Below are positions 6,364-60,801 of a DNA stretch of 64,000 nucleotides, piece after piece; position 1 is the stretch's first letter, and each line of letters starts with the position of its first letter. This DNA comes from an uncultured candidate division Zixibacteria bacterium (GTDB taxonomy: Bacteria; Zixibacteria; MSB-5A5; RBG-16-43-9). The position numbers and the translations under genes are program-made. The DNA lies in contig OY970208.1 of assembly GCA_963713865.1 (NCBI GenBank), positions 1,176,520 to 1,240,519 on the forward strand. Direction: 5' to 3'. The notes under the pieces were generated by a model. That model did no database searches. It worked only from the letters and a program-made list of their open reading frames with translations, and was not told where the DNA came from.

Positions 6364-7839
6364 TTAGAGTATAAATTCAGAAAGGTCTATCTTATATTTC
6401 TGGGGATCCAGGCACCTCACTGGCATCTTAGATTCCTCCATTTCCGCAGGATATTCTGAGCTTTGGCCCAAATCCAGAGTCTCAGGTGTTTTTTTAATCC
6501 CATTCTGGTCTGCGATAATTTTTAGTTTGGGTAGAGTGAGGTTCTCCGGATTATTTTTTATCACTATCCCTATCTCCCCGGTATTTAAAAGGACCAGGGA
6601 GCCCACCGGATAAACCCCCAAGATATTTATAAAAAGTTTCAACAAGCAGGAATCATAAACTTTATCCCGGGCATAAAACATCTTCCTCAAAGCTTCATCC
6701 GGCAGATAAGGGGTTTTAATATATACCCGGCCCGAGGTCATAGCATCATAAGCATCGGCAATGCTTACTATACGGGAGAACAGGTTTAACTCTCTTTTGT
6801 TTTTAACCTTAGGATAACCGGAAAGGTCGAGGTTCAGATGGTGTTCAAAACTAACCAGCATAGCCCTCATTGAAAAGGGATCGAACTTTAAACTGATTAA
6901 AAGGTTTTTTACTCCCCAGATCGGGTGTTTTTTCATCCTCGTCCATTCGGATTCATTGAATTCAGAAGGTTTGTTTAAAAGCTCCAAGGGTAAATTTGTT
7001 TTTCCAATATCGTGAAACAGGGCGGCAAGGCCTAATTCGCTTAACTTCTTTTTGTTTAAACCCAATCTCAATCCCAGGATTAAGGAGAGGATACAGACGT
7101 TGGTAGAATGGAGATAAGTATATTCATCGTAGTTTCTTAAAGAAGAAAGCTCTAAGAAGATCTCCTCGTTCAGCAGGAGCTGATCTACTAAAGATTGAAC
7201 TACCCTTTTCACTTTAACCAGATTTATCTCTTTACCTGCCTGAGCTCTCTGGCTGATCTCTCGCACCATAGAGAAAGCTTTGGTGAAAGTTTTTTTCGCA
7301 ACCTTTCGCTGGTCTAAAGAGATCTGGTCAGCTTCTAAAACGGAAGACTCTTTTTCCTTTTCCAGGTGAAGGTTCTGGAGATTTTCCTCAAAGATTTTTT
7401 TCTCCAAACTTTCAAATGGCTCCATATCCTCAGTATCTATTTGTGCTAGAATATAGATCAAGCTTTGCAAATCCTTCTGGGTTAATCCGTCCTCCAGAGC
7501 AAGTTTATAGATCTTCAGTTTTTTCAAGAACTCCAGGATAAATCGGCTGGCAACATAATTTTCGAAATCGAATCTCAGACGGGCTTGATTTAAAAACAGA
7601 TAACCTTCCTGGGTGCTTAAGTTAAGCTCACCCTCCTTTTCAATTAACTCCCTGACTAAATCCATCAGGGGATGGATCTGTTTCTGGAAAGCGGCATTAT
7701 TCGGTTCGTATATAAGGGAGGTCTTAAGGGTAGAATAGAATAGATTTATAAACACCTTCCCTTTTTCTAAAAGATGTAAAGACGCCTCTTTCTTCTCTTT
7801 TCTTTCCTGAGCATTAACCGGTTCAACTAACTTATTCAA
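6364..7839 (-). CDS. HD-GYP domain c-di-GMP phosphodiesterase-like protein with about 200 aa N-terminal domain of unknown function
   Basis: HDIGK, HHLNLDLSGYP, SIADAYDAMTSGRVY motifs. Confidence 0.8.
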   Translation of the reverse strand: MNKLVEPVNAQERKEKKEASLHLLEKGKVFINLFYSTLKTSLIYEPNNAAFQKQIHPLMDLVRELIEKEGELNLSTQEGYLFLNQARLRFDFENYVASRFILEFLKKLKIYKLALEDGLTQKDLQSLIYILAQIDTEDMEPFESLEKKIFEENLQNLHLEKEKESSVLEADQISLDQRKVAKKTFTKAFSMVREISQRAQAGKEINLVKVKRVVQSLVDQLLLNEEIFLELSSLRNYDEYTYLHSTNVCILSLILGLRLGLNKKKLSELGLAALFHDIGKTNLPLELLNKPSEFNESEWTRMKKHPIWGVKNLLISLKFDPFSMRAMLVSFEHHLNLDLSGYPKVKNKRELNLFSRIVSIADAYDAMTSGRVYIKTPYLPDEALRKMFYARDKVYDSCLLKLFINILGVYPVGSLVLLNTGEIGIVIKNNPENLTLPKLKIIADQNGIKKTPETLDLGQSSEYPAEMEESKMPVRCLDPQKYKIDLSEFIL

Positions 7840-7853
7840 ATTTCATACTCCCG

Positions 7854-9602
7854 TTATTTGCCGAGATCTTTTCGGCTCCTCTCCGAGGTGGAGACTTTTT
7901 CCCACAAAGCTTTAGCTTGTTTCTGGATTTTCTTTTTACTTTTTAAACCAAACTCTTTTAGACTCTCCTGGCTTAAGGAAGTCCCGATTGAGGCTAAAGA
8001 TTTTAAAGCCAGAGAAGAAGTCTCCGTTTGTTTTTCTCTTTTGAACCAGACTTTTTTCAGGATCAGCTTCTTGAGCAAGGGGATAGCCTCATCTTTACCT
8101 ATCTTGGCCCAGGTTTCCAAAAGGGTCTCTTTCTCCACACGATTTTTATCTCTGAAATCTTTTCTCAAAAATAGAGCTGAGACGTAATCCAGAGCCTCCT
8201 GGGTAGGTAACCTCTGGCTTAATACTTTCGCTGCTTTGAGCCTGAGCCTTTCATCCGGATCCGCTAAGACATTCAAAAGAATGGAAGTTCCCTCTTTTCC
8301 CTCGATGTGAGAGAGAGCTTCTAAGGTCTCTTTCCTTACTCTTATATCCTCATGGGCAATGGTTTTCTTCAGATAGGGGAGGGCAAGGGGGGAGCTGATT
8401 CTTCCGAAGATACCTACGATATTTCTGACCACATACCATCTGCGGTCATAAATCCCTTTGCTTAAAAGATTGATATTCTTTTCCCCTACATTCTCCAGAA
8501 TCGAGCAGACCATCTTCCGGCTGGCAAAATTTTCCAGTTCACCTAACATATCTACAAAATCAGGGATACTGTTCCAGCTTAAAAGGCTAAGATATTTTTT
8601 AACTGAGAAAAGGTCTAAACTTATTTTCTGATTCAAAATCTGGGTCAGGATTCTCATCCTCTCTTTATCTCCAGCCCGGTCAGCTGCTTCTTTAATCCTT
8701 ATGGTTCTATTTGACTGACCTGTATCAGCTTCAGTTTTCTCTAAGTTTTTCAGAAGAAGCAATAACTCTGAGGCTAAATAGAAGTCCCCTTGACCGATCA
8801 GGGAGTCCAAAAGTTTTTCAAAAAGCTTAACTGTCTCTGAAAACTCGTGGTATTCCTTTTCGCTGAAAAGGATTTCCTCTAAAACGGCGAAGCTCTCTTT
8901 TAAGGGTTCGAAGCTTTCGTCTTTCTCTAAAAGGGTTTTTAGCTCTTCTAATTCCTTCTCCGGAACAAGGTCTAAATCCCGGAGAAACCTATCGACTTCA
9001 ATTTTATGGGGTAGCTCTTTCAAATTTTCAGTTTTTCCTTCTAAATTTACCTCAGAATAATAAAGCTTCTTTAAGTCTTTTTCCCCTACCGGTTGAGGTA
9101 AATCGACAAGTTCCTCGCTTAAGAATTCATCCACCACTAAAAATTTTATATGCGCTAATTCTTTTTCCCAGAAAAGGGTAACCAGATCGTCCTCTGGCAG
9201 AGTAGATTTCAGACCACGGCTTATTATCTCCAGAAAAGCAAAAAGCTCTTCCTGGTCCATTCCTTTCTGGAAAGCGATCTCCCTGATCCCATCCCGGTAA
9301 AAGGCAAAGGAGATCCCTTCATCTTTTTTCTCCTCTTTTACGACAACTTTATCTTTATATAATAGTTGAGATTGAGCCACCCTGAATTTAAGCTCCTCGT
9401 TTTCCTGCAGGTAAGCTGAGAGTTTTTTGAACAGGTTATTCTTGAACTCTTTAGGTATAGGATTATCCGCTGGATAGATGCAGAAGATCTTGAGAGTCTT
9501 GATCAAAAGGTTGGTTATCTCCTGAACCCCTTTGGGGAGCTCAACTGAGAAGTTCTGGAACTCTTCTGATTCCGCTTTAACAATTCTTGATTCTTCAAGC
9601 AT
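7854..9602 (-). CDS. HEAT/PBS-lyase repeat protein
   Basis: 582 aa, Glu/Lys-rich; C-terminal repeated helical units (RVRKETLEAL..., ERLRLKAAKVL...). Confidence 0.5.
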   Translation of the reverse strand: MLEESRIVKAESEEFQNFSVELPKGVQEITNLLIKTLKIFCIYPADNPIPKEFKNNLFKKLSAYLQENEELKFRVAQSQLLYKDKVVVKEEKKDEGISFAFYRDGIREIAFQKGMDQEELFAFLEIISRGLKSTLPEDDLVTLFWEKELAHIKFLVVDEFLSEELVDLPQPVGEKDLKKLYYSEVNLEGKTENLKELPHKIEVDRFLRDLDLVPEKELEELKTLLEKDESFEPLKESFAVLEEILFSEKEYHEFSETVKLFEKLLDSLIGQGDFYLASELLLLLKNLEKTEADTGQSNRTIRIKEAADRAGDKERMRILTQILNQKISLDLFSVKKYLSLLSWNSIPDFVDMLGELENFASRKMVCSILENVGEKNINLLSKGIYDRRWYVVRNIVGIFGRISSPLALPYLKKTIAHEDIRVRKETLEALSHIEGKEGTSILLNVLADPDERLRLKAAKVLSQRLPTQEALDYVSALFLRKDFRDKNRVEKETLLETWAKIGKDEAIPLLKKLILKKVWFKREKQTETSSLALKSLASIGTSLSQESLKEFGLKSKKKIQKQAKALWEKVSTSERSRKDLGK

Positions 9603-48014: not shown

Positions 48015-49356
48015 ATGCAAGAAAAACTTCTGAAAAGTATCTCCGGGATTAGAGGGATAGTTGGAAAAACCCTTACGCCAGAACAAGGTTTTAAAATATT
48101 CTTCTGCCTTTGGAAACTATTGTAAGGGAGGAAGGATTGTATTAGGCAGGGATACCCGTAAATCCGGAGAAATTTTCAAGAATAGTGTGTTGGATGGACT
48201 TTTTTCTGCTGGCTGTGAAGTGATAAATTTAGGGATTTGTCCAACCCCGACTGTGGGGATGGCAGTTAAAGGTCTGAAGGCTAAAGGTGGGATAATGATT
48301 ACTGCCAGCCATAATCCTGCAGAGTGGAATGGTTTAAAATTTTTCAATGCAAAAGGGGTTTTCTTAGATGAAAAAGAGGGTAAAAAGTTCTTTTCTTTAG
48401 CGGAGAAGGAGATAAAATATTCAGAGCGAAAAAAGTCAGGTAAAGTTCATTCAGATAATAGGTGGATTGAGAAACATATCCAGAGGATTTTAGGGTTATC
48501 CTATATAGACAAGAACAAGATTAAGAAGAAAGGATTCAAAGTTGTGCTTGACTGTAATAACGGTGCTGGTGCAAAGATTGCTCCTTTGCTTCTCAGGGAA
48601 TTAGGATGTCAGGTGATTGAGTTAAATTGTGGTTTAAGCGGAGAGTTCGTTCATTCACCAGAACCTGTGCCGGAGAATTTGGCTTTGCTCTGTAAAAAAG
48701 TAAAAAAGACTAAAGCAGATTTGGGTTTTGCCTTAGATCCGGATGCGGATAGATTGGCTATAGTCTCAGAGAAAGGGGTTCCTCTGGGCGAGGAATATAC
48801 CCTGGCTTTATGTGTGGATTTTGTTTTGAGTAAAAAACTTTCGGACGTGGCAGTGAATAATTCTACTTCTATGGTTATGGAAGATATTGTCAGAAAATAC
48901 GGGGTTGAAGTTTTCCGCAGTAAAGTAGGTGAGATATATGTAGTCTCACTCTTGAAGAAGATTAAAGGGGTAATTGGAGGAGAAGGGAATGGGGGGGTAA
49001 TTCTGCCAGAAAATCATTATGGCAGGGATGCGCAGGTGGGTATGGCTCTGATTCTGCAGTATTTAACTGAATCCGGCAAAAAGATAAGCCAGCTAAAGCA
49101 GAGCTTGCCTCAATATTTCATACAAAAAGATAAGTTAAAGCTTTCGAGTAATTTTGATAATAAATTAAAAATATATCTAAGAAAGTTCAAACAGTCAGAG
49201 ATAAATTATTTAGATGGAGTGAAAGTAAAGCTCGAAAATTCCTGGATCAGTATCCGTAAGTCAAATACTGAACCGATCATCAGAATTATGGCAGAAGCTA
49301 CTATCAGAGAAGAAATAGAAAAACTGGTGCTTGAGGCTAAACGGGAATTAAGTTAA
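48015..49356 (+). pseudogene. Phosphohexomutase (phosphoglucosamine/phosphomanno-mutase family), frameshift near 48090-48131
   Basis: ATG at 48015 encodes MQEKLLKSISGIRGIVGKTLTPEQG then stops; main ORF (48061-49356) carries TASHNPAEWNG active-site Ser. Confidence 0.75.
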
Positions 49357-49376
49357 ATTACTATTAAAAATCTGCT

Positions 49377-50054
49377 TCATCTGCCTTTTTCTTCTTCGAT
49401 ATGATGTCTGATATCTTTACCCTGCACCAAATAGATAACATCTTCAGCTATATTAGTAGCATGGTCTCCTATTCTCTCTAAATGTCTGGAGACTAAGATT
49501 AATTCCAGAGCCCGGGGTATAGTGGATTGGTCACTGAGCATAAAGGTCAGAAGCTCACGAAAAATCTGGTCTTTTAATCCATCGACTTGATCATCCCGGG
49601 TCAAAATCGAACGAGCTAAGTCTACATCCCTTTTAATGAAAGCATCTAAACTGTCTTTCACCATCTTTTGAGTCAGTTCCGCCATTCGGGGTATGTCGAT
49701 CAAGGGCTTGAGCTGAGGCTGTTTAATCAGAACTTCAGTCCGCTGAATAATATTTACCGCTAAATCCCCAATCCTTTCCAGCTCGCTGTTGATCTTCATA
49801 GCCGAGGTGATAAACCTCAAGTCCGTTGCCATCGGCTGTTTCAGAGCCAAGAGCTTAAGGCAGAGATCGTCGATCTCTATTTGAAGATAGTTAACCTTTT
49901 TCTCGTCCTGATTAACCACTTCGAATAGAGACTCATCTCTTTCCGATAGAGATTTAACCGCCTTGTAGATCATCATTTCAGCCAAGCTGGCCATAGATAG
50001 CAATTTTTCTTTTAGGAGATTTAACTCCTCATCGAAATGTTTGTGAATCGTCAT
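49377..50054 (-). CDS. phoU: Phosphate signalling regulator PhoU
   Basis: Two PhoU repeats (ERIGDLAVNI, ERIGDHATNIAED). Confidence 0.9.
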   Translation of the reverse strand: MTIHKHFDEELNLLKEKLLSMASLAEMMIYKAVKSLSERDESLFEVVNQDEKKVNYLQIEIDDLCLKLLALKQPMATDLRFITSAMKINSELERIGDLAVNIIQRTEVLIKQPQLKPLIDIPRMAELTQKMVKDSLDAFIKRDVDLARSILTRDDQVDGLKDQIFRELLTFMLSDQSTIPRALELILVSRHLERIGDHATNIAEDVIYLVQGKDIRHHIEEEKGR

Positions 50055-52978: not shown

Positions 52979-53449
52979 TTAAGATGATATTGATCTGTCA
53001 AGGTACTGTGAGTAATCTGTCAACCTCTGGGTGTATCTTTCTCTTATTAAATTAGATGAAATAATAAAATCTGCTGTAGATCTGTTACAAGCTGTAGGAA
53101 TATTATAAAGAACAGAGATCCTCAGCAAAGCTTTTACATCAACATCATGCGGGTGTGGTTGCATGGAATTCCAAAAGAAGATCAGAATGTCAATATTTCC
53201 TTCTGCAACCATCGCTCCAAGTTGTTGATCGCCTCCAAATGGACCTGATTTTAGTTTAACTATACTATGGTTCAATGACTGCCCTTTTTCTAGTTTCTTG
53301 GATATTACTTCCTCAACTAAGCGACCAGTAGTCCCTGTACAGATCAACCTGTGATTTAAAAGTACTTTCCAGTTCCATTCTACCCATTCGACTAAGTCAC
53401 TTTTACAGTTGTCGTGTGCAACCAAAGCAACTCGCTTCGATATTTCCAT
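52979..53449 (-). CDS. mgsA: Methylglyoxal synthase
   Basis: ALVAHDNCKSDLVEW...TGTTG...SGPFGGDQQLGA...DILIFFW...QPHPHDVDVKALLR. Confidence 0.85.
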   Translation of the reverse strand: MEISKRVALVAHDNCKSDLVEWVEWNWKVLLNHRLICTGTTGRLVEEVISKKLEKGQSLNHSIVKLKSGPFGGDQQLGAMVAEGNIDILIFFWNSMQPHPHDVDVKALLRISVLYNIPTACNRSTADFIISSNLIRERYTQRLTDYSQYLDRSISS

Positions 53450-53607
53450 GACCTCTCCTTATATCTATTCTGTTTCATAAGACTTGATTGATACGAGCCT
53501 ATGTTGTGTCATAGTCAAGCATATTATTCTGTGCCCAGCAATTTTGCATAACATCTGCACCCTTACGCAGTAAGGCTGTTTGTTAGCGGTAGACATTCAC
53601 AGCAAAC

Positions 53608-54558
53608 CTATATTACACCTGATTGTTTAAAATAACTTACCGTTTCTTCAATTCCCTTTTCATAAGGGGTGGGCTTATGGTTGAAATGTTTTTCAAATTT
53701 CGACGAATCAAACACATAATCATATTTATTTTGATACAACATTTCATAAGCTTCCCGTGTCCGCTTATCAAATACGCCTGCCAGCTTTACCATCCACTTC
53801 TTTAGAACAGTGAAGTCGGGATTTACTCCCAGCTTTTCAGCCACATTTCTTATGAATTCCTCACCGGTTAGAGGAGGGCTTGCGGTTGGTAGATGCCATA
53901 CCTGATTATTCGCACTCTCTGCCTTAGCTAAGAGGTACAAAGACTTTCCACAGTCGCCTGTATACGTGTAAGAGTGTTTGGCTTTGACATTTACTAACCA
54001 TTGTGCTTTTCTGCCTTTTGCTAGTCTTTCAATCACGAGCATAAATGGAAGGCTTGTTTTATCTGCATAAGGTCCATAGAAATCAGCAGCCCTTGCGATG
54101 ATAGCAGTGATATTGTTGCTCCTTATTTCTGAGAGAAGGTAGTCGGCTATTTGAGCCCTCACTTCGCCTTTTTTACTGCAAGGATTAATGGGGGAATCTT
54201 CCTTCATAATACCTTTCACTTTCCCATACATATACACGTTGTCAAAAAAGATCAGCCGGGCATTTTTCGATTTGCAAGCCGCAACAGTATTTTGCATTAT
54301 TATGGGCCATTGTTCTTGCCAGATTGATGTATCGTAAGGAAGTCCAACAAGAAGATAAACAACAGATGATTCTTCAAGGGCATGATTTGTTTCCTGGAAA
54401 TTAGTTAAGTCAGCTTTTGACGATTCTGTCCGCTGAACACTGTGTCCACTGCGGGATACTAGTTTTACACTTTCATTATTTGAAAGCAATTCTTTTGTCA
54501 GGATATTACCAATAGCACCACCCGCTCCAAGAATAATGTGTTTTGTAATTGTTTTCAT
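53608..54558 (-). CDS. NAD(P)-binding oxidoreductase (atypical SDR / NmrA-epimerase-like)
   Basis: N-terminal ILGAGGAIGN Rossmann motif; 316 aa. Confidence 0.6.
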   Translation of the reverse strand: MKTITKHIILGAGGAIGNILTKELLSNNESVKLVSRSGHSVQRTESSKADLTNFQETNHALEESSVVYLLVGLPYDTSIWQEQWPIIMQNTVAACKSKNARLIFFDNVYMYGKVKGIMKEDSPINPCSKKGEVRAQIADYLLSEIRSNNITAIIARAADFYGPYADKTSLPFMLVIERLAKGRKAQWLVNVKAKHSYTYTGDCGKSLYLLAKAESANNQVWHLPTASPPLTGEEFIRNVAEKLGVNPDFTVLKKWMVKLAGVFDKRTREAYEMLYQNKYDYVFDSSKFEKHFNHKPTPYEKGIEETVSYFKQSGVI

Positions 54559-54654: not shown

Positions 54655-55489
54655 CTACTTGACTGGGAAATACCCAACCTTACTTACAATCTGCTGTCCC
54701 TGTTCAGACAGGGCGAAATCGACTAATTTCTTTATTTCACCAGTAGGTTTATTGCGAACATACCAGTATAGATAGCGGGAAATAGGATATTTTCCATTTT
54801 TTATATTCTCCAGAGTCGGCTCATAGCCAAGTGTTTGAGCATCCTTCTTAACTTTGCAATATTTCACTCCTTTGGCATAAGCGGCTCCTCCATAACCGAT
54901 TCCATATTCGTCCTTTGCCACTGCATTCACAATCGCCGCAGTTCCCGGAAGGGTCTCGGGTCTGGGATGCAAAATCTGCACCCGTTAAGACATTGTCCTT
55001 AAAATAAGCATAAGTGCCGGAGCTATTATCCCTGCCATAGAGGACTATTTTGGTATCATCTCCGCCTAAGTCCTTCCAGTTGGTAATCTTTCCGGTGTAA
55101 ATTCCTTTAAGTTGATCCAGGGTGAGTTCAGAGATCTTGTTTTCTTCGTTCAGATAGATAGAGAGTCCATCTCTTGCTACTGCGATTTCAACTCCTTTAG
55201 TGTTAAACCGCTCTTTCAATTTGTCAACTTCAGAGCTTTTAATAGGTCTTGAGGCTTCGCAGATGTCAGTCGAGCCATTGATTAAAGCGGCAATCCCTAC
55301 TCCAGAACCTCCACCAGTTACCTGAATAACTACTCCCGGATTCTGATTCATATAGATTTCTGCCCATCTTTGACCCAAAATGAGCAAAGTGTCAGAGCCT
55401 TTTATGGTAATAGTCTTAGCGGCAAAAACTGATAACATAACTGTAAATGATAAAGATAGAATTCCTATAACGGCTATTAGCTTTTTCAT
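54655..55489 (-). pseudogene. pstS: Phosphate-binding protein PstS, frameshift near 54960-55000
   Basis: N-part IQVTGGGSGVGIAALINGSTDI; C-part (GTG start artefact) LPGTAAIVNAVAKDEYGIGYGGAAYA in a different frame. Confidence 0.8.
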
Positions 55490-55511: not shown

Positions 55512-56779
55512 TTAAAACATAAACTGAAATTGCAAGGTAAATCTGTTGTCTTTTCTGTCGCCATCATATTTGGAGAAAATAGAGTTGTTTTTAAGTTGAT
55601 GAGGTATATCATATGCTGCCGTTATCCTTACATAAGAATCCCAGAAATAATGCAGGGCTAAAGACAAGGTTCCAGTGGCGTCGTTCTTTGCGTTCTCATC
55701 TGTATTGGGGTCCCAGTAATCATATCTGGCGGCAGCTCCAAATTTAGTGGTTAAATTCTGGGATAACCAGAGATACCAGCCCATTTCGTCGGCTAAAGAA
55801 TCCTTTGCATTTTTATTATAGTCCTGAGCCAGGTAAAGCTCTCCCCTGATTCCGGTTCCGCCGATTGGCAAGAAATCAAGATAGACCTGGGCATCAGCAC
55901 CATACCTGATCTTGTCTTTTTCCACTGCTGGGACTGCAGCTTTTGGAGCAGTGGTTTTAAACTCGCCCGGGTCTATTACTCCATTTCCATTCACATCATA
56001 CCAGCTGGTAACACCAGAAACAGCCGCGCTTCCAGGAAAATAGGTTTTACCCCAGTAACCGGAGAATCCTAAATCGACCATTCCTAATTTCGCCTTTGCC
56101 CGAGCAATTACATCTTTTGCCTTAGTAGGATCAAACCAGGTGAAGTTTTTGTCCTCTATCCCGTAACCTTGGAAAAGACCTAAGTTGAACTGGAGATATT
56201 TCGGAAGAGCCCAGGTAAGATTTGTTCCTCGGTCTCGTTCCCCTTTGAAAAGGTTATTCTCTGCCAGACTTCTTTCCGGGAAATCTCTTTTGGACGAAGA
56301 ATATTCGATCTCGTACCCGAAAGGCCAGTTGAATTGTCCAAAAGTTAGCGCGAGATTATGTTTTCCGATACTCTTGTAAAGCTCAACATAAGCTTCTTTC
56401 AATGAAACGGTATTCTTTGAAGCATCAAAATAGATAATATACTTGCTGGAAGAACCGGGCTGGACCGTGAACTTTATCCTTCCTCTCCTGATATAGAAGT
56501 TATTGGCATTTAGGTTTTTAGTGGCATCATAACCACCTGCAACTCCATTCTGGGAACTGTCATTATACTCATACCGCATCTGGATGTAGCCGGATATTTT
56601 CACCCATTTCAGGATAGCAACATCGCTGTTCAAAGTTGCCATGTTCTCCGAAATCCCATCCAGACGGTCTTTCGTTTCCTGAAGCGCAGCCTTAATGCTG
56701 TCTTCTGGGTCTGCGCCCAGGAATGATTTAGACTTATAGCTACTAATAAAAGCAAGATCAGCAAAATTTTTGTTTTCAT
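55512..56779 (-). pseudogene. Phosphate-selective porin (OprO/OprP-like), frameshift within signal-peptide region near 56700-56770
   Basis: ATG at 56779 encodes signal peptide MKTKILLILLLLVAISLNHSWAQ in one frame; mature porin ORF (55512-56642) in another; position upstream of pstS. Confidence 0.6.
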
Positions 56780-56979
56780 GTTTTCTCCTTTTTTGTTCTG
56801 GTTTCTTAAGTCCTAACTCGTCAGGCTTTCAAGCTTAACTTCTCATACCACCTCCTCGAAATATTTTCCAATTAAACTTTTTAACTTTACTTTCATATTT
56901 CCTCCTTTAATATTTTCTAATAATTGCAAAATTCATCGTCTTTCAAACTACAAATTAAACGTTCACCATATTACGCCTG

Positions 56980-57007
56980 TATTAACTCAGTGTTAATTCT
57001 GGGTTAA
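56980..57007 (-). promoter_or_regulatory. Pho-box-like element: three direct repeats TTAACC / TTAACA / TTAATA at 11-bp spacing upstream of the porin-pst operon
   Basis: Hexamers at 57007-57002, 56996-56991, 56985-56980 on minus strand; about 200 bp upstream of porin start. Confidence 0.4.
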
Positions 57008-57400
57008 CAAACATTCACCGGATAATCTGCCTGGGGAAGATGATAGAATACACTTAGAGGGCTAAATTTGCCTCATATCTGTCTTAAAATGTGGTAATAG
57101 TTTAGACTAAAGAGATGACTGGCTGGCAGAACTTTACTTCGTCCCAAGGATGTTTTTTTCAGATTTGTCACCTGAACCAGCATGAGCTATTGATACTAAG
57201 GGTAAGACTAAAAGAAGAATCAAAAAGACTATTAGGTACTTCCTGAAGGTCATTTCTAAACTCCTCTGATATAAAAGTTTTTTACCTTAAAACACTCACC
57301 TGCAGAACAAAATCCTTAAAATTGAGTTAGACAGATTTTACATCATTATTAATGATAAAAACCTGTTGTACTTCTTCCTCTCCGCAACCTCGAGCTGCCG

Positions 57401-57616
57401 TTAATTCTCGTTCATAAAATCTGCCTCAGGTACTTCAAATTCCTCGAATTCCTCAAGTTCCTCTAACTCGATTACTGGAGGTTTAATAAGGGTATATTCA
57501 CCCTCTATGATTTTTTCCACCACCTTAAGGAACTTCTCCGTGCTTAACCCCTGTAACTTGTAGGTTATCCAGCATGTTCTTGGGGGTGGCTTGCTTTTCT
57601 CCTTCGATTCAAGCAT
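57401..57616 (-). CDS. Small acidic protein, unknown function
   Basis: 71 aa ORF with EELEEFEEFE tail; coding status uncertain. Confidence 0.3.
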   Translation of the reverse strand: MLESKEKSKPPPRTCWITYKLQGLSTEKFLKVVEKIIEGEYTLIKPPVIELEELEEFEEFEVPEADFMNEN

Positions 57617-57631
57617 AAGTTCTACCCTGGG

Positions 57632-57853
57632 TTAATGGCTAACCAGCTCGCGATGAAATACACTCCAGTCAGAAGCAGATTGATTAACTTTCTCACAGTT
57701 TACCAATTCCTTGGTGCCGAGAAAGAACGGGCAGTGGCAATATTCGGTGCTATGGCAGAAGCTCTTGAGTTCCAAAAGATTTGGCACCATGCCGTCGAAC
57801 ATCTCAGAATCACACATCTCTATTTTCCCCTGGATCAGTTTGGGACATTCCAT
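57632..57853 (-). CDS. Small Cys-rich protein (6 Cys, CHSTEYCHCP), member of tandem MECPKLIQ family
   Basis: 73 aa; identical RBS and first 8 codons shared with upstream paralogous small ORF. Confidence 0.35.
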   Translation of the reverse strand: MECPKLIQGKIEMCDSEMFDGMVPNLLELKSFCHSTEYCHCPFFLGTKELVNCEKVNQSASDWSVFHRELVSH

Positions 57854-58020
57854 TTTCTTTCACCTCCTCTGTTGATGAATCTTTTTCATTAAATATTTTC
57901 TCAAGTAATTCAAAAACCCACTCAGAATCATCCGTCTTTGTTTTGTCCTGGATTAGCTTGGGACATTCCATTTTCTTTCACCCCCTCTGTTGATGAATCA
58001 TTTTCGTCAAATATCTTCTC
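57826..58020. repeat. Tandem duplication (2 units of about 100-115 bp) carrying RBS GAGGAGGTGAAAGAAA and start ATGGAATGTCCCAA
   Basis: Unit 1 about 57826-57900 and unit 2 about 57945-58020, roughly 90 percent identical. Confidence 0.7.
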
Positions 58021-58143
58021 TATCAGATAAAAGACCCACATACTTGGAGAAAACAGTTGCTTCCCCTTCATTTTCCTTGAAAACAGGTAAGTTAAGGAAA
58101 CAATAGCGGCAAGCGCTATACTCATCAGGATAAATGTCTGCAT
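57928..58143 (-). CDS. Small membrane protein; C-terminus overlaps the tandem repeat
   Basis: 71 aa, N-terminal TM helix; C-terminal VFYLIEKIFDENDSSTEGVKENG paralogous to next unit. Confidence 0.3.
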   Translation of the reverse strand: MQTFILMSIALAAIVSLTYLFSRKMKGKQLFSPSMWVFYLIEKIFDENDSSTEGVKENGMSQANPGQNKDG

Positions 58144-58321
58144 ATCTTTTAATCTTCCTTGCGAATCATTTTCTCATTCATAAAGTCATAAAGTCCATTT
58201 GAACTCGCTAAAGTAAACGATAGCTTGATTTCAGTGAGATTAACTAAAGGTTAAATCTATGTTAAAAAGGTTGGATTAATTAAAAATGTCAGTTGAAGGA
58301 TATGTATGCTGGCAAAAAAGA

Positions 58322-60091
58322 CTATGCTTTTCTCAACCTGAAGCTAAATTCACTCCCCTTACTCAATTGACTTCTAACATTTACTGTTTCCCCGTGAGCT
58401 TCGATTATATGCTTGACAATGGAAAGTCCCAGACCGGTTCCACCCGATTCCCGGGAGCGGTCTTTATCAACCCGGTAAAACCTTTCAAAGATTCGGGGCA
58501 GGTCTTTTTCAGGGATTCCGATTCCGGTATCTATTACCGCAATCTCGATATAGTCTCCTTTATCCCGGCTCTCGATTTTGATCTTTCCATTTAGAGGGGT
58601 ATATTTGACGGCATTATCCACCAGATTAGTCAATGCCTGAGCTATTCTGTACCTGTCACCTAAAACTCTCTGGTTTTCAGAATTTAGTACTATTTCTATT
58701 TTTTGTGATTTCCCCTCTGCTAAAGACTTGAGAGCAGATAAAATCTCTTCAAAAAGCTCTTTGATCAAAAATGGTTCTAATTTCAATTCAAAATCCTTGG
58801 ATTCGATGAGGGAAAGCTGTAGTAAGTCAGAGATGATTTTGTTCATCCGGTCAGTATGCTGGGAGATTATGGAAAGGAAACGAGCTGATTTTTCCGGGTC
58901 GTTTATGGCTCCATCTTTTAACGCTTCCACAAAGCCCTTGATTGAGGTGATGGGGGTTCTTAATTCATGCGAGACATTTGCCACAAAGTCTTTCCGTATC
59001 CTTTCAGTCTTCTTAAGTTCGGTTATGTCGTGAAAAACGAAAATCGCAAAAATCGCACCCTCCTTTTGTCTTTCTACCAGAGCAGACTGGACCATAAAAT
59101 CTTTTTCCCTGGGATAGATAAAAGAGAATTCCATACTTTTACTCTCCTGGCTCGAAAGAACTGTCTGGATGAATTGGTTCAGTTCATGACTTCGGATCAG
59201 CTCAAAATAGGATTTACCGTAAAAAGATTTATCCAGCTCGAACATCAGGCACATAGCAGAGTTTGCCAGAATGACTTTACCCTGAGAGTCTATGGCTAAT
59301 ACCCCTTCGATCATACTGGAGAGGATGGACTGCATCTGTGATTTATCCTCAGTAATCTGCTCTATCTTCCCGGAAAGCTCAACCGACATCCGATTTAAAA
59401 TTTCAGCCAGCTCTCCGATCTCGTCTCTGGTTCTTACATTGACCTTTTGAGAGAAATCACCTTCAGACATCCTCCTTCCCACTTGCATCATCTGTCTTAA
59501 AGGTCTGGTTACCCTGTATGAAAATCCGAAACTTAAGAGGAACGAGAAGATGAAAGCTACTACCAGTCCTAAAAGGACAAGTTTGATGATCATATTTTGC
59601 CTATGTCTTAACTCAATCAGAGGTAAGGATAAGCGAGCTACTCCGATGATTTTACCTTGGGCTTTTATAGGAAAAGCTACATAGAGCATATCTTCTTTGA
59701 TGGTATAGCTATAGCGAATACTTTTTCCAACTTTGCCCTGCAGGGCTTCTGCAACCTCAGGTCTATTTTTGTGGTTCTCCATGTTTAAAAGCGCTTTTCC
59801 ACTCTCATAGGAATCTGCGACCACTTTACCATTTCTGTCAATTATGGTTATCCGACCCTGTATTTTATTACCGAGCTCATCTGCCAGGCTGTCTGTTTTT
59901 GTTAAATCCAAGTTTTCTAATAGAGGGGAAGCAAATATATTAGATAAAAGCTGTGTTTCAAAGATCATACCCTGTTCGAGTTGAGTAAGTGAGCGCTTTC
60001 TTTCAGAGGAGGAGATTAAAATCCCGGCAAGGGAAAGCCCTAAAATACTCAGCAGAAGATAGGTCAAGAACAATTTCCACTGCATCTTCAT
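58322..60091 (-). CDS. phoR: Sensor histidine kinase (PhoR-like: TM, HAMP, PAS, HisKA, HATPase)
   Basis: SHELRTPITSI H-box; GGTGLGLSIVKHI G-box; genomic context with pst operon. Confidence 0.8.
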   Translation of the reverse strand: MKMQWKLFLTYLLLSILGLSLAGILISSSERKRSLTQLEQGMIFETQLLSNIFASPLLENLDLTKTDSLADELGNKIQGRITIIDRNGKVVADSYESGKALLNMENHKNRPEVAEALQGKVGKSIRYSYTIKEDMLYVAFPIKAQGKIIGVARLSLPLIELRHRQNMIIKLVLLGLVVAFIFSFLLSFGFSYRVTRPLRQMMQVGRRMSEGDFSQKVNVRTRDEIGELAEILNRMSVELSGKIEQITEDKSQMQSILSSMIEGVLAIDSQGKVILANSAMCLMFELDKSFYGKSYFELIRSHELNQFIQTVLSSQESKSMEFSFIYPREKDFMVQSALVERQKEGAIFAIFVFHDITELKKTERIRKDFVANVSHELRTPITSIKGFVEALKDGAINDPEKSARFLSIISQHTDRMNKIISDLLQLSLIESKDFELKLEPFLIKELFEEILSALKSLAEGKSQKIEIVLNSENQRVLGDRYRIAQALTNLVDNAVKYTPLNGKIKIESRDKGDYIEIAVIDTGIGIPEKDLPRIFERFYRVDKDRSRESGGTGLGLSIVKHIIEAHGETVNVRSQLSKGSEFSFRLRKA

Positions 60092-60114: not shown

Positions 60115-60801
60115 CTAAGTACTTTCTTTTAATTTATAACCCAGATTTTTCACGGTCTGAATTGCTTCAGTTAGAATAGGAATTTTTTCTCTTAATCTCC
60201 TTATATGTACATCTACTGTTCTCATTCCGCCATAATAATCATATCCCCAAACCTCGTCCATCAGATAATCTCTGCTTAAAACCCGGCCTTTGCTGCGTAA
60301 AAGACACTCTAACAAATCGAATTCTTTTGAGCTTAACTCAACTGTCTTATTATTAAAGGTAGCTTCATGTCTGGATAAATCTAAAGAGAGATTCCCATAA
60401 CGATATACTTTTTCTTTTTCTGCCTTTCTTTCAATTCTGCGAAGCAGGGCTTTCACCCTTGCAACTAATTCCTTAGGACTGAAGGGCTTGGTTATGTAAT
60501 CATCCGCCCCTAATTCCAGCCCAATGATTTTGTCTGTTTCCTCTCCCTTGGCAGTCAGCATGATTATCGGGACAGATTTGGTTTTAGGATCTGACCTTAA
60601 TTCTCTACAAACCTCTAACCCGTCCATCTCCGGAAGCATTATATCCAGTATTACCAAATCGAAGTTTTCAGCTCGTGCCTTTTTAAGACCCGAGAACCCG
60701 TCCAGAGCATCTGTCAGAACGAAATTTTCTTTTTCCAGATAATGCCCTACCAGTTCAACGATATCTTTATCGTCCTCAATTACTAAAATCTTTTTCGACA
60801 T
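60115..60801 (-). CDS. phoB: OmpR/PhoB-family response regulator
   Basis: Receiver domain (LVILDIMLPEMDG) plus winged-helix (RTVDVHIRRLREK); context. Confidence 0.85.
   Translation of the reverse strand: MSKKILVIEDDKDIVELVGHYLEKENFVLTDALDGFSGLKKARAENFDLVILDIMLPEMDGLEVCRELRSDPKTKSVPIIMLTAKGEETDKIIGLELGADDYITKPFSPKELVARVKALLRRIERKAEKEKVYRYGNLSLDLSRHEATFNNKTVELSSKEFDLLECLLRSKGRVLSRDYLMDEVWGYDYYGGMRTVDVHIRRLREKIPILTEAIQTVKNLGYKLKEST

Follow-up and report, generated by a model that had tools for sequence, protein, structure and literature searches.

Translationally coupled, overlapping cistrons are a general phenomenon in bacterial operons, and partial tandem duplication across a gene boundary is a known route to chimeric genes. 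MgrB and SafA are small membrane regulators of PhoQ, and the metal-binding mini-proteins that use four cysteines include zinc ribbons, rubredoxin and WhiB-like proteins. Closer to the subject of this work, DUF1127 small proteins bind PhoR (PMC12501420), and YoaI is a small membrane protein that is induced by PhoB and acts on EnvZ (PMC11429745). PHO boxes consist of two or more 11-nt direct repeat units, each with a conserved core and a less conserved spacer, located in the -35 region (PMC4415409). Here we analyse a 64,000-nt stretch of DNA from an uncultured candidate division Zixibacteria bacterium (contig OY970208.1, positions 1,176,520 to 1,240,519; hereafter the window), in which four small open reading frames (ORFs), A, B, C and D, lie between a phoR-type gene and a gene for a phosphate-selective porin. 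Coordinates are window positions, and the four ORFs are all on the minus strand. WIN stands for the window's own sequence, L001-L030 for related loci and P-numbers for related proteins.

The reading that we favour, and consider likely to be right as a whole, is that an old duplication of the junction between A and C gave rise to a chimeric cistron, B, which would have been kept for its copy of the core of the A tail in a Pho-linked A-B-C-D operon. Compared with other chimeras produced by duplication across a gene boundary, B likewise joins the 5' end of one gene (Shine-Dalgarno (SD) sequence, ATG and 17 codons) to the 3' part of its upstream neighbour, and its copy number varies. It departs from the usual cases in its tiny scale (118 bp, 53 aa), in a length of 3n+1 that fits the frame of the neighbour's tail, and in the position of the array within a chain of overlaps. 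As in coupled cistrons, the downstream start and its SD lie inside the 3' end of the upstream ORF, A and C overlap or abut in relatives with a single unit, and the overlap has been regenerated for both A/B and B/C, a geometry that suggests coupling. Unlike the classic examples, the overlaps measure 11-50 nt instead of being ATGA or 4-nt overlaps, and the overlap module was itself duplicated into a new cistron. No new principle is involved: there are precedents for tandem duplication, for chimeric ORFs and for overlapping genes whose translation is coupled. What the locus would illustrate is that a short duplication over an overlapping gene boundary can yield a translatable mini-gene and leave the operon unbroken.

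A tandem duplication of the A/C junction

A gene junction of 118 bp has been duplicated in tandem in the window, and the duplication is old. Tandem Repeats Finder reported a period-118 array at 57803-58020 (1.8 copies, 86% matches, no indels), and a repeat search delimited two full 118-nt tandem copies, 57803-57920 and 57921-58038, with a mutual identity of 82%. Over positions 57000-58400 the best ungapped self-alignment was at offset 118, with a score of 58, against a mean of 10.1, a standard deviation of 1.0 and a maximum of 14 in 200 shuffles. Moreover, the independent Logan assembly L011 (run ERR10755944) is 100% identical over window positions 56843-58136 and reproduces the array exactly, and thus the array is not an assembly artefact peculiar to this record. 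An earlier note, made from the DNA letters and their translations, had proposed a tandem duplication at this place, and that much is confirmed. Its estimate of a unit of about 100 bp has to be corrected to 118 bp, and the ribosome-binding sites that it took as identical differ by a single base (GGGGGTG in one unit, GGAGGTG in the other). It was right that both starts encoding MECPKLIQ, those of B and C, lie in another frame inside the C-terminal part of the preceding ORF, and each of them sits 44 nt before the end of that ORF.

The duplicated segment spans A codon 36 (Trp) through C codon 17. Unit 1 (57921..58038, minus strand) carries A codons 36-71, which form the tail, the SD GGGGGTG, and an ATG with 17 codons copied from the 5' end of C. 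Unit 2 (57803..57920, minus strand) carries a second copy of the A tail (WVFELLEKIF-NEKDSS-EEVKEN), the SD GGAGGTG, and the true start of C with its first 17 codons; its positional orthologues, at 75-94% identity, are the last units of L012, L005, L013, L014 and L015. Because 118 equals 3×39 + 1, the ATG of the upstream unit reads 17 codons in the C frame and then enters the A-tail frame of the next unit. The resulting ORF B (53 aa; 57971-57810, minus strand) starts with MECPKLIQDK..., is acidic (isoelectric point 4.25) and has no membrane helix. It is composed of a C-derived start, MECPKLIQDKTKTDDSE, a paralogue of the A tail, WVFELLEKIFNEKDSSTEEVKEN, and an out-of-frame reading of the start of C, beginning 44 nt before the stop of A and ending 44 nt after the true ATG of C. 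B thus joins a C start to an A tail, and along A→B→C the overlap geometry of the ancestral A→C pair is preserved.

Relatives at greater distance (L001, L007, L008, L010, L016 and L018-L021) have a single A/C junction. In these loci A has a membrane helix, a basic stretch and a tail of the form W-I/V-F-Y-L-I-E/D-K-I/M-F...NDS..KEVKEN; it stops 3 nt to 49 nt past the ATG of C, and its ...EV codons encode the SD of C (GGAGGTG). The junction is repeated in the clade whose C carries CHSxEYCHCP, with two units in WIN, L012, L028 and L030 and three in L005, L013, L014 and L015 (the last being the same sequence as L006), and the unit spacings across this clade are 118/118, 118/117 or 115/117. Last units from different genomes are 75-94% identical, compared with 82% between the window's own two units. 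The units therefore group by position and not by genome, which indicates that the duplication is old, has not been homogenised and predates the split of these lineages. As L005, with three units, and L028, with two, are close relatives, copy number changes by unequal exchange. The earlier note had proposed looking for copy-number variation between strains, and indeed 1 to 3 units occur among the relatives. The lower figure includes a possible case very close to the window: in P0052, an A protein and member of the window's 90% cluster, the first 45 residues equal those of window A and the tail is of the last-unit type, which suggests a single-unit allele in a near-identical relative, although the assembly of its 1.9-kb contig may have collapsed.

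The steps of this history may be set out as follows. In the ancestral state, which the more distant relatives still show, the end of A overlaps the start of C, with the SD of C contained in the last codons of A (...EEVKEN). A tandem duplication from A codon 36 to C codon 17, with a length of 3n+1, then placed a C-type ATG where it reads into the next A tail, creating the new cistron B with an SD and an ATG of its own. Judging from the geometry, such an arrangement would likely permit translational coupling from A to B and from B to C. Unequal exchange has shifted the number of units, which is two or three in the relatives and perhaps one in the single near-identical relative mentioned above.

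An independent and larger duplication was seen at the corresponding locus of a different lineage. There (L027, 1638-2629) A (70 aa) is followed by a degenerate copy of C (84 aa), a membrane ORF of 85 aa, the decayed remnant of an A tail with an SD, and an intact C (80 aa).

Coding evidence for B and competing explanations

Gene prediction has ORF B as a gene in the source genome, and the same is true of four more clusters, with identities of 79-100%. B-type ORFs are open in 8/8 genomes of the clade, with a purine-rich SD 6-9 nt ahead of the ATG, and they start 11-50 nt before the previous stop (44 nt for both A/B and B/C in the window, 11-50 nt in the seven others). Without exception the first spacing has a length of 3n+1 (118 or 115). 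In L013-L015, whose second spacing is 117, the internal SD and ATG have decayed and one ORF of 70-88 aa spans both tail motifs.

Selection was assessed by Nei-Gojobori ratios of nonsynonymous to synonymous differences (pN/pS) in the B-only core, that is, the first 16-22 codons of the last unit, which B alone covers. In the B frame the ratio was 0.32-0.38, against 0.64-1.16 in the other frames, and the differences fell on the three codon positions as 50:24:93. The A tail of single-copy genomes gave a similar ratio, 0.26-0.33. With three independent sister pairs the B core had a pN/pS of 0.40, and 7/20 differences were synonymous compared with an expected 17.7% (binomial p = 0.05); over both tests together the other frames ranged over 0.64-1.43. 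The flanks of B behave in another way. In the 3' halves of first units, which encode its MECPKLIQ N-terminus, no frame is clearly constrained (0.62-1.00, the B frame having 0.73), and in the 3' half of the last unit, where the C-terminus of B overlaps the start of C, the C frame alone is constrained (0.07). Variable readings of the B N-terminus are found in relatives (MVCHKPIQ, MGCPDIIQ, MMCHERIQ, MMCKEKNA), and P0031 and P0032, from the window's 90% clusters, are B variants whose differences from window B are confined to the first 13 residues. The motif WVF-x-LL-E/D-K/R-I-F is kept in the most diverged units, for example as KVSDLLEKVF in L015.

B is thus probably translated and retained for its A-tail core (DSE-WVFELLEKIF-xExD), the coding evidence being suggestive and not conclusive. 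It is likely to be a soluble, acidic paralogue of the cytoplasmic tail of A, with its MECPKLIQ N-terminus and its last ~14 residues likely being by-products of the overlaps. The earlier note had asked whether the MECPKLIQ ORFs are conserved and under purifying selection; this holds for C (pN/pS 0.16), is suggested for the B core (0.32-0.40), and fails for the MECPKLIQ N-terminus of B. Its picture of two MECPKLIQ genes has to be given up, as the peptide of the upstream copy is unconstrained (pN/pS ~0.7) and decays in relatives, and the conserved part of B is the A-tail copy. We also considered the upstream copy as a second Cys-rich gene and rejected it: this MECPKLIQ is a relic of the first 17 codons of C that supplies an SD and an ATG. 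Conservation and codon-level selection were both found, and a non-coding duplicated spacer, which would show neither, does not describe this region.

Some observations weigh against the reading that we favour. The selection signal in B comes from ~24 codons and is marginal when independent contrasts are used, and the translation signals of C account for part of the conservation near the SD. If the apparent single unit in P0052 is not the product of assembly collapse, B may be dispensable. The TTAAY repeat described below as a candidate Pho box does not occur upstream of the window's phoB. Furthermore, A, B, C and D received no family or fold assignment from Pfam, NCBIfam or the PDB, and models of C had low confidence, so that the functional part of the reading is conjecture. 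It could then be argued that B is a neutral relic, a tolerated by-product that persists to preserve the stop/start overlap used for translation of C, its conservation reflecting recent common ancestry together with the constraints imposed by the SD and start of C. The unconstrained termini of B, the marginal test with independent pairs and the possible single-unit allele of P0052 fit this explanation, as does the comparison of WIN with L012, in which 6/53 residues changed in B, 2/73 in C and 2/71 in D. However, B has remained open with its SD and ATG in all eight genomes despite divergence of C to 81-97% identity, and the indels respect the logic of the frames, a 1-nt deletion having produced the read-through ORF with two motifs and not a broken one. 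In addition, the excess of third-position differences and the in-frame ratios resemble those of the A tail in single-copy genomes, and the tail motif persists in the most diverged units. We therefore regard a neutral relic as unlikely.

The other explanations are much harder to reconcile with the data. A role of the repeat as nucleic acid, whether as a structured leader or attenuator RNA that regulates C or as a series of DNA sites bound by protein, might be imagined because two SD-ATG modules could tune the translation of C and because the locus does contain true DNA direct repeats of the Pho-box type. Nevertheless, Rfam gave no match at E <= 1 over 56600-58400, the 261-nt repeat RNA folds worse than 200/200 shuffles (z = +2.41), no inverted repeats were found, the TTAAY motif is absent inside the units, and substitutions are codon-like in one frame, which makes such a role very improbable. 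Each unit is offset by +1, and 1-nt indels split the window's porin and pstS genes relative to those of relatives, so one might also suppose that A, B and C (or A and B) form one longer protein, joined by programmed +1 frameshifting or divided by sequencing errors. Against this, the region is identical in the independent assembly L011, L012, L028, L030 and L005, from other samples, share the 118-nt spacing and the set of ORFs, and each cistron has its own SD and ATG; single-copy relatives always have A and C as separate, overlapping ORFs with variable stop positions, and no conserved slippery site was seen. A single longer product is for these reasons highly doubtful. Finally, the small size of C and the MECPKLIQ ORFs, their several cysteines and their nearly identical tandem N-termini recall a precursor of a ribosomally synthesized and post-translationally modified peptide, as the earlier note had suggested, or a secreted Cys-rich peptide. 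The neighbourhood of ~10 kb contains neither a maturation enzyme nor an exporter, C shows neither a signal peptide nor a leader-core organisation, its conservation extends over the entire protein, and the upstream MECPKLIQ copy decays in relatives; we give this idea almost no credence.

The A, C and D genes and their link to the phosphate locus

In Zixibacteria-like genomes the predicted small genes A, C and D form a conserved cluster that has had no annotation and always lies upstream of the porin and pst genes. A, B, C and D are all gene calls in the 2.72-Mb source contig, each named only "hypothetical protein", and a literature search found no description of these small proteins. The suggestion of the earlier note that small protein genes are tied to this phosphate locus is upheld by the 14 clusters of C homologues, by the synteny with porin and pst genes in every related locus, and by the Pho-box-like motif.

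ORF A (71 aa; 58143-57928, minus strand, from the ORF list) ends in ...VKENGMSQANPGQNKDG. It has an N-terminal hydrophobic helix at residues ~3-21 (the best 19-aa Kyte-Doolittle window, starting at residue 3, scores 2.18), followed by RKMKGK and by the tail motif WVFYLIEKIF-DENDSS-EGVKEN. The final 14 codons of A read through the C-like start in another frame. A is a predicted single-pass membrane protein, and its tail is presumably cytoplasmic because the RKMKGK stretch comes after the helix. Orthologues with the same layout, small and with a single helix, are present in every related locus. The in-frame pN/pS is 0.13-0.33 in the tail and 0.36 in the membrane part.

ORF C (73 aa; 57853-57632, minus strand) starts with MECPKLIQGK... 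and has cysteines at positions 3, 14, 33, 39, 41 and 53, with the motif CHSTEYCHCP; it is the six-cysteine product that the earlier note had pointed out. Its homologues fall into 14 clusters, every one exactly 73 aa long, at 60-78% identity (E = 4e-36 to 9e-23). Invariant in the alignment are C3, C14, C33 and C41 (C-x10-C-x18-C-x7-C), together with a C-terminal DW-VFHRE (SDWNVFHRE in the window), whereas C39 and C53 are restricted to the window's clade. The pN/pS of the whole ORF is 0.16 and that of its first 17 codons 0.07. C has neither a signal peptide nor a leader-core pattern, is conserved over all 73 aa and is by prediction a cytosolic, Cys-rich protein.

The four-Cys core is retained in remote homologues of C. 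Among these, P0024 is encoded immediately ahead of pstSCAB-phoU, together with an A-like membrane ORF (BLASTP E = 2e-07 against window A). An exhaustive profile search of 1.84 billion representatives returned 6 matches at E <= 1e-3, two of which are spurious repeat proteins, and thus the C family is narrow. In a remote locus, L022 (516-1505), we observed three Cys-rich small ORFs, one of which begins with MCPKL, and an A-like membrane ORF with FIFELINRIF, all directly upstream of pstSCAB-phoU. This arrangement suggests a wider pst-linked and undescribed family. The TTAAY doublet discussed below gives 5 matches in L022 against 3.5 expected, which is not above chance.

Metal binding by C is plausible. 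Like the known four-Cys mini-proteins, C is small and would be cytosolic, and its four invariant cysteines lie within ~40 residues. Unlike zinc ribbons and rubredoxin, it has no CxxC knuckles among the invariant cysteines and no Pfam, NCBIfam or PDB match; the C39-H-C41 pair is specific to the clade and not conserved beyond it. The spacing C-x10-C-x18-C-x7-C(P) also differs from the C-x2-C-x5-C of WhiB. Database searches gave no usable match for A, B, C, D or the remote homologues in Pfam (E <= 1 for A-D) or NCBIfam (E <= 10), and among PDB sequences the C profile and D found only chance matches (E >= 0.69). AlphaFold2 models of C had mean predicted local distance difference test scores (pLDDT) of 56.6 with 15 sequences and 50.2 with 19 sequences, too low for a meaningful fold search.

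ORF D (71 aa; 57616-57401, minus strand), which starts 15 nt past the stop of C, contains the motif PPPRTCWITYKLQGLSTEKFLKVVEKIIEGE and an acidic tail. It is acidic, as is C. Homologues of D are 82-100% identical, orthologues are present in most related loci, and the pN/pS is 0.11.

The cluster is preceded by a Pho-box-like element at 58222..58265 (minus strand), made of the direct repeats TTAACATAGAT TTAACCTTTAG TTAATCTCACT with 11-nt spacing and a weaker fourth unit, GAAATCAAGCT. This element, TTAAC-N6 three times, lies 79-122 nt ahead of the ATG of A. A second triple repeat of the same type, TTAACCCAGAA TTAACACTGAG TTAAT, is found upstream of the porin gene at 56981..57008 (minus strand), where a sigma-70-like match, TTAACA-17-TAATAT, overlaps it. 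Within the 64 kb there are just two occurrences of TTAAY-N6-TTAAY-N6-TTAAY, at 58239-58265 and 56981-57008, with 0 expected, and the doublet TTAAY-N6-TTAAY has 7 matches against 1.8 expected, 6/7 being at these two sites. The sole other doublet was noticed at 49352-49367, within the few bases that separate phoU from the PGM/PMM gene. In an alignment of 15 loci the region upstream of A reads TTTTTAAC-N5-TTTAAC-N5-GTTAATC-N5-(G/C)NAAT, followed by a conserved TCGTTTA. The TTAAY element was found in 25/30 fetched loci, usually at both positions, and the second site, between D and the porin gene, recurs in L005, L009, L013, L014, L016, L028 and L030.

Both elements show the architecture described for PHO boxes (PMC4415409), with 3-4 direct repeats at an exact 11-nt spacing and a conserved core of 5-6 nt, ahead of the first gene. 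They likewise belong to a phoBR-porin-pst locus with two promoters, and the triple repeat occurs nowhere else in the 64 kb. They differ from the E. coli PHO box in the core, TTAAY here and CTGTCAT in E. coli, and the PhoB site of this locus is a predicted one. We infer that A-B-C-D is transcribed from a PhoB-dependent promoter when phosphate is scarce, as an accessory of the porin-Pst cluster. A candidate Pho box is thereby supplied for this lineage.

The resemblance to DUF1127 proteins and YoaI, and to the analogous MgrB and SafA, lies in the very small size of the proteins, the single helix of A, the position beside phoR and pst, and the probable Pho control. However, there is no sequence relationship to DUF1127 proteins or YoaI, and the constant neighbour here is porin-pstS and not phoR, so that this is an analogy only; indeed, DUF1127 was not matched by A, B, C or D at Pfam-A E <= 1 or NCBIfam E <= 10. 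Speculatively, the amphipathic tail of A might hold C, as a metal-binding protein, and/or D to the membrane in the vicinity of PhoR or Pst, and B might add or titrate tail-binding capacity in the form of extra soluble copies of the tail. The full version of this idea is a phosphate-starvation module A-(B)-C-D, in which the A tail would dock the metalloprotein C (and D) near PhoR/Pst and the B copies, one to two extra doses, would be soluble competitors or adaptors. We hold it to be quite improbable as stated. If it were true, the copy number of the 118-bp junction would be a natural dial on phosphate signalling or uptake, and the locus would document the birth of a functional gene through duplication of a junction 3n+1 nt long. 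There is active interest in small proteins that adjust two-component systems and transporters, and the locus offers testable candidates. They form a conserved, unannotated set at the phosphate-uptake genes of an uncultured lineage that has been little studied, and comprise a putative membrane anchor, the four-Cys protein C and an acidic partner.

Neighbouring genes and related loci

On the minus strand the order is phoB, phoR, A (71 aa), B (53 aa), C (73 aa), D (71 aa), porin O/P and pstS, and the earlier note had correctly placed the array between phoR and the porin gene. The neighbours were identified with Pfam: phoB at 60115-60801 (minus strand), a phoR-type histidine kinase gene (sCache, HAMP, PAS, HisKA and HATPase domains) at 58322..60091 (minus strand), the phosphate-selective porin O/P gene at 55512..56779 (minus strand; Porin_O_P, E = 8.5e-11), pstS at 54655-55489 and phoU at 49377-50054. 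Farther neighbours are an epimerase gene, an MGS-like gene, pstC, pstA, pstB and PGM/PMM, with glmS beyond phoB. Synteny with the porin and pst genes was found in every related locus, the porin gene being its downstream anchor, and the phoR-type gene is the upstream neighbour in most relatives, not all. In L014 no phoBR precedes the operon, and porin-pstS still follows it; the constant partner is thus the uptake cluster and not phoR. Most genome records that bear the family are labelled Candidatus Zixiibacteriota. The two closest metagenome-assembled genomes are labelled Ignavibacteria and Terriglobales, and one member of the window's 90% cluster is labelled Zixibacteria.

Two of the uptake genes are split in the window. 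The porin O/P gene has a 1-nt deletion in the C-run 56707-56709 (CCC, where relatives have CCCC; located against L030), and pstS is split by a 1-nt insertion at ~54957. Intact genes for the porin (422 aa) and for PstS (282 aa) are present in L005, L028 and L030, and the exact truncated pstS product (213 aa) had no record in the protein collection. The splits may reflect pseudogenes or errors in the consensus.

Between D and the porin promoter there is a further ORF of 39 aa (57134-57253, minus strand) with a signal-peptide-like N-terminus. Versions of 43-56 aa are found in L012, L013, L014 and L030; a 1-nt difference within an A-run makes the window's copy shorter, and the independent assembly L011 has this difference too. 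Between pstS and pstC the window has the MGS-like and NAD-dependent epimerase genes (52979-54558, minus strand), whereas in L001, L028 and L030 pstS is followed directly by pstC. In L001, a 137-kb metagenomic contig, the order is phoB, phoR, an A-like ORF, C, a D-like ORF, porin, pstSCAB and phoU. At 6530-8079 of this contig, Porin_O_P is reduced to a 77-aa N-terminal remnant that is followed by a Porin_5-family gene, which looks like a porin replacement upstream of pstS.

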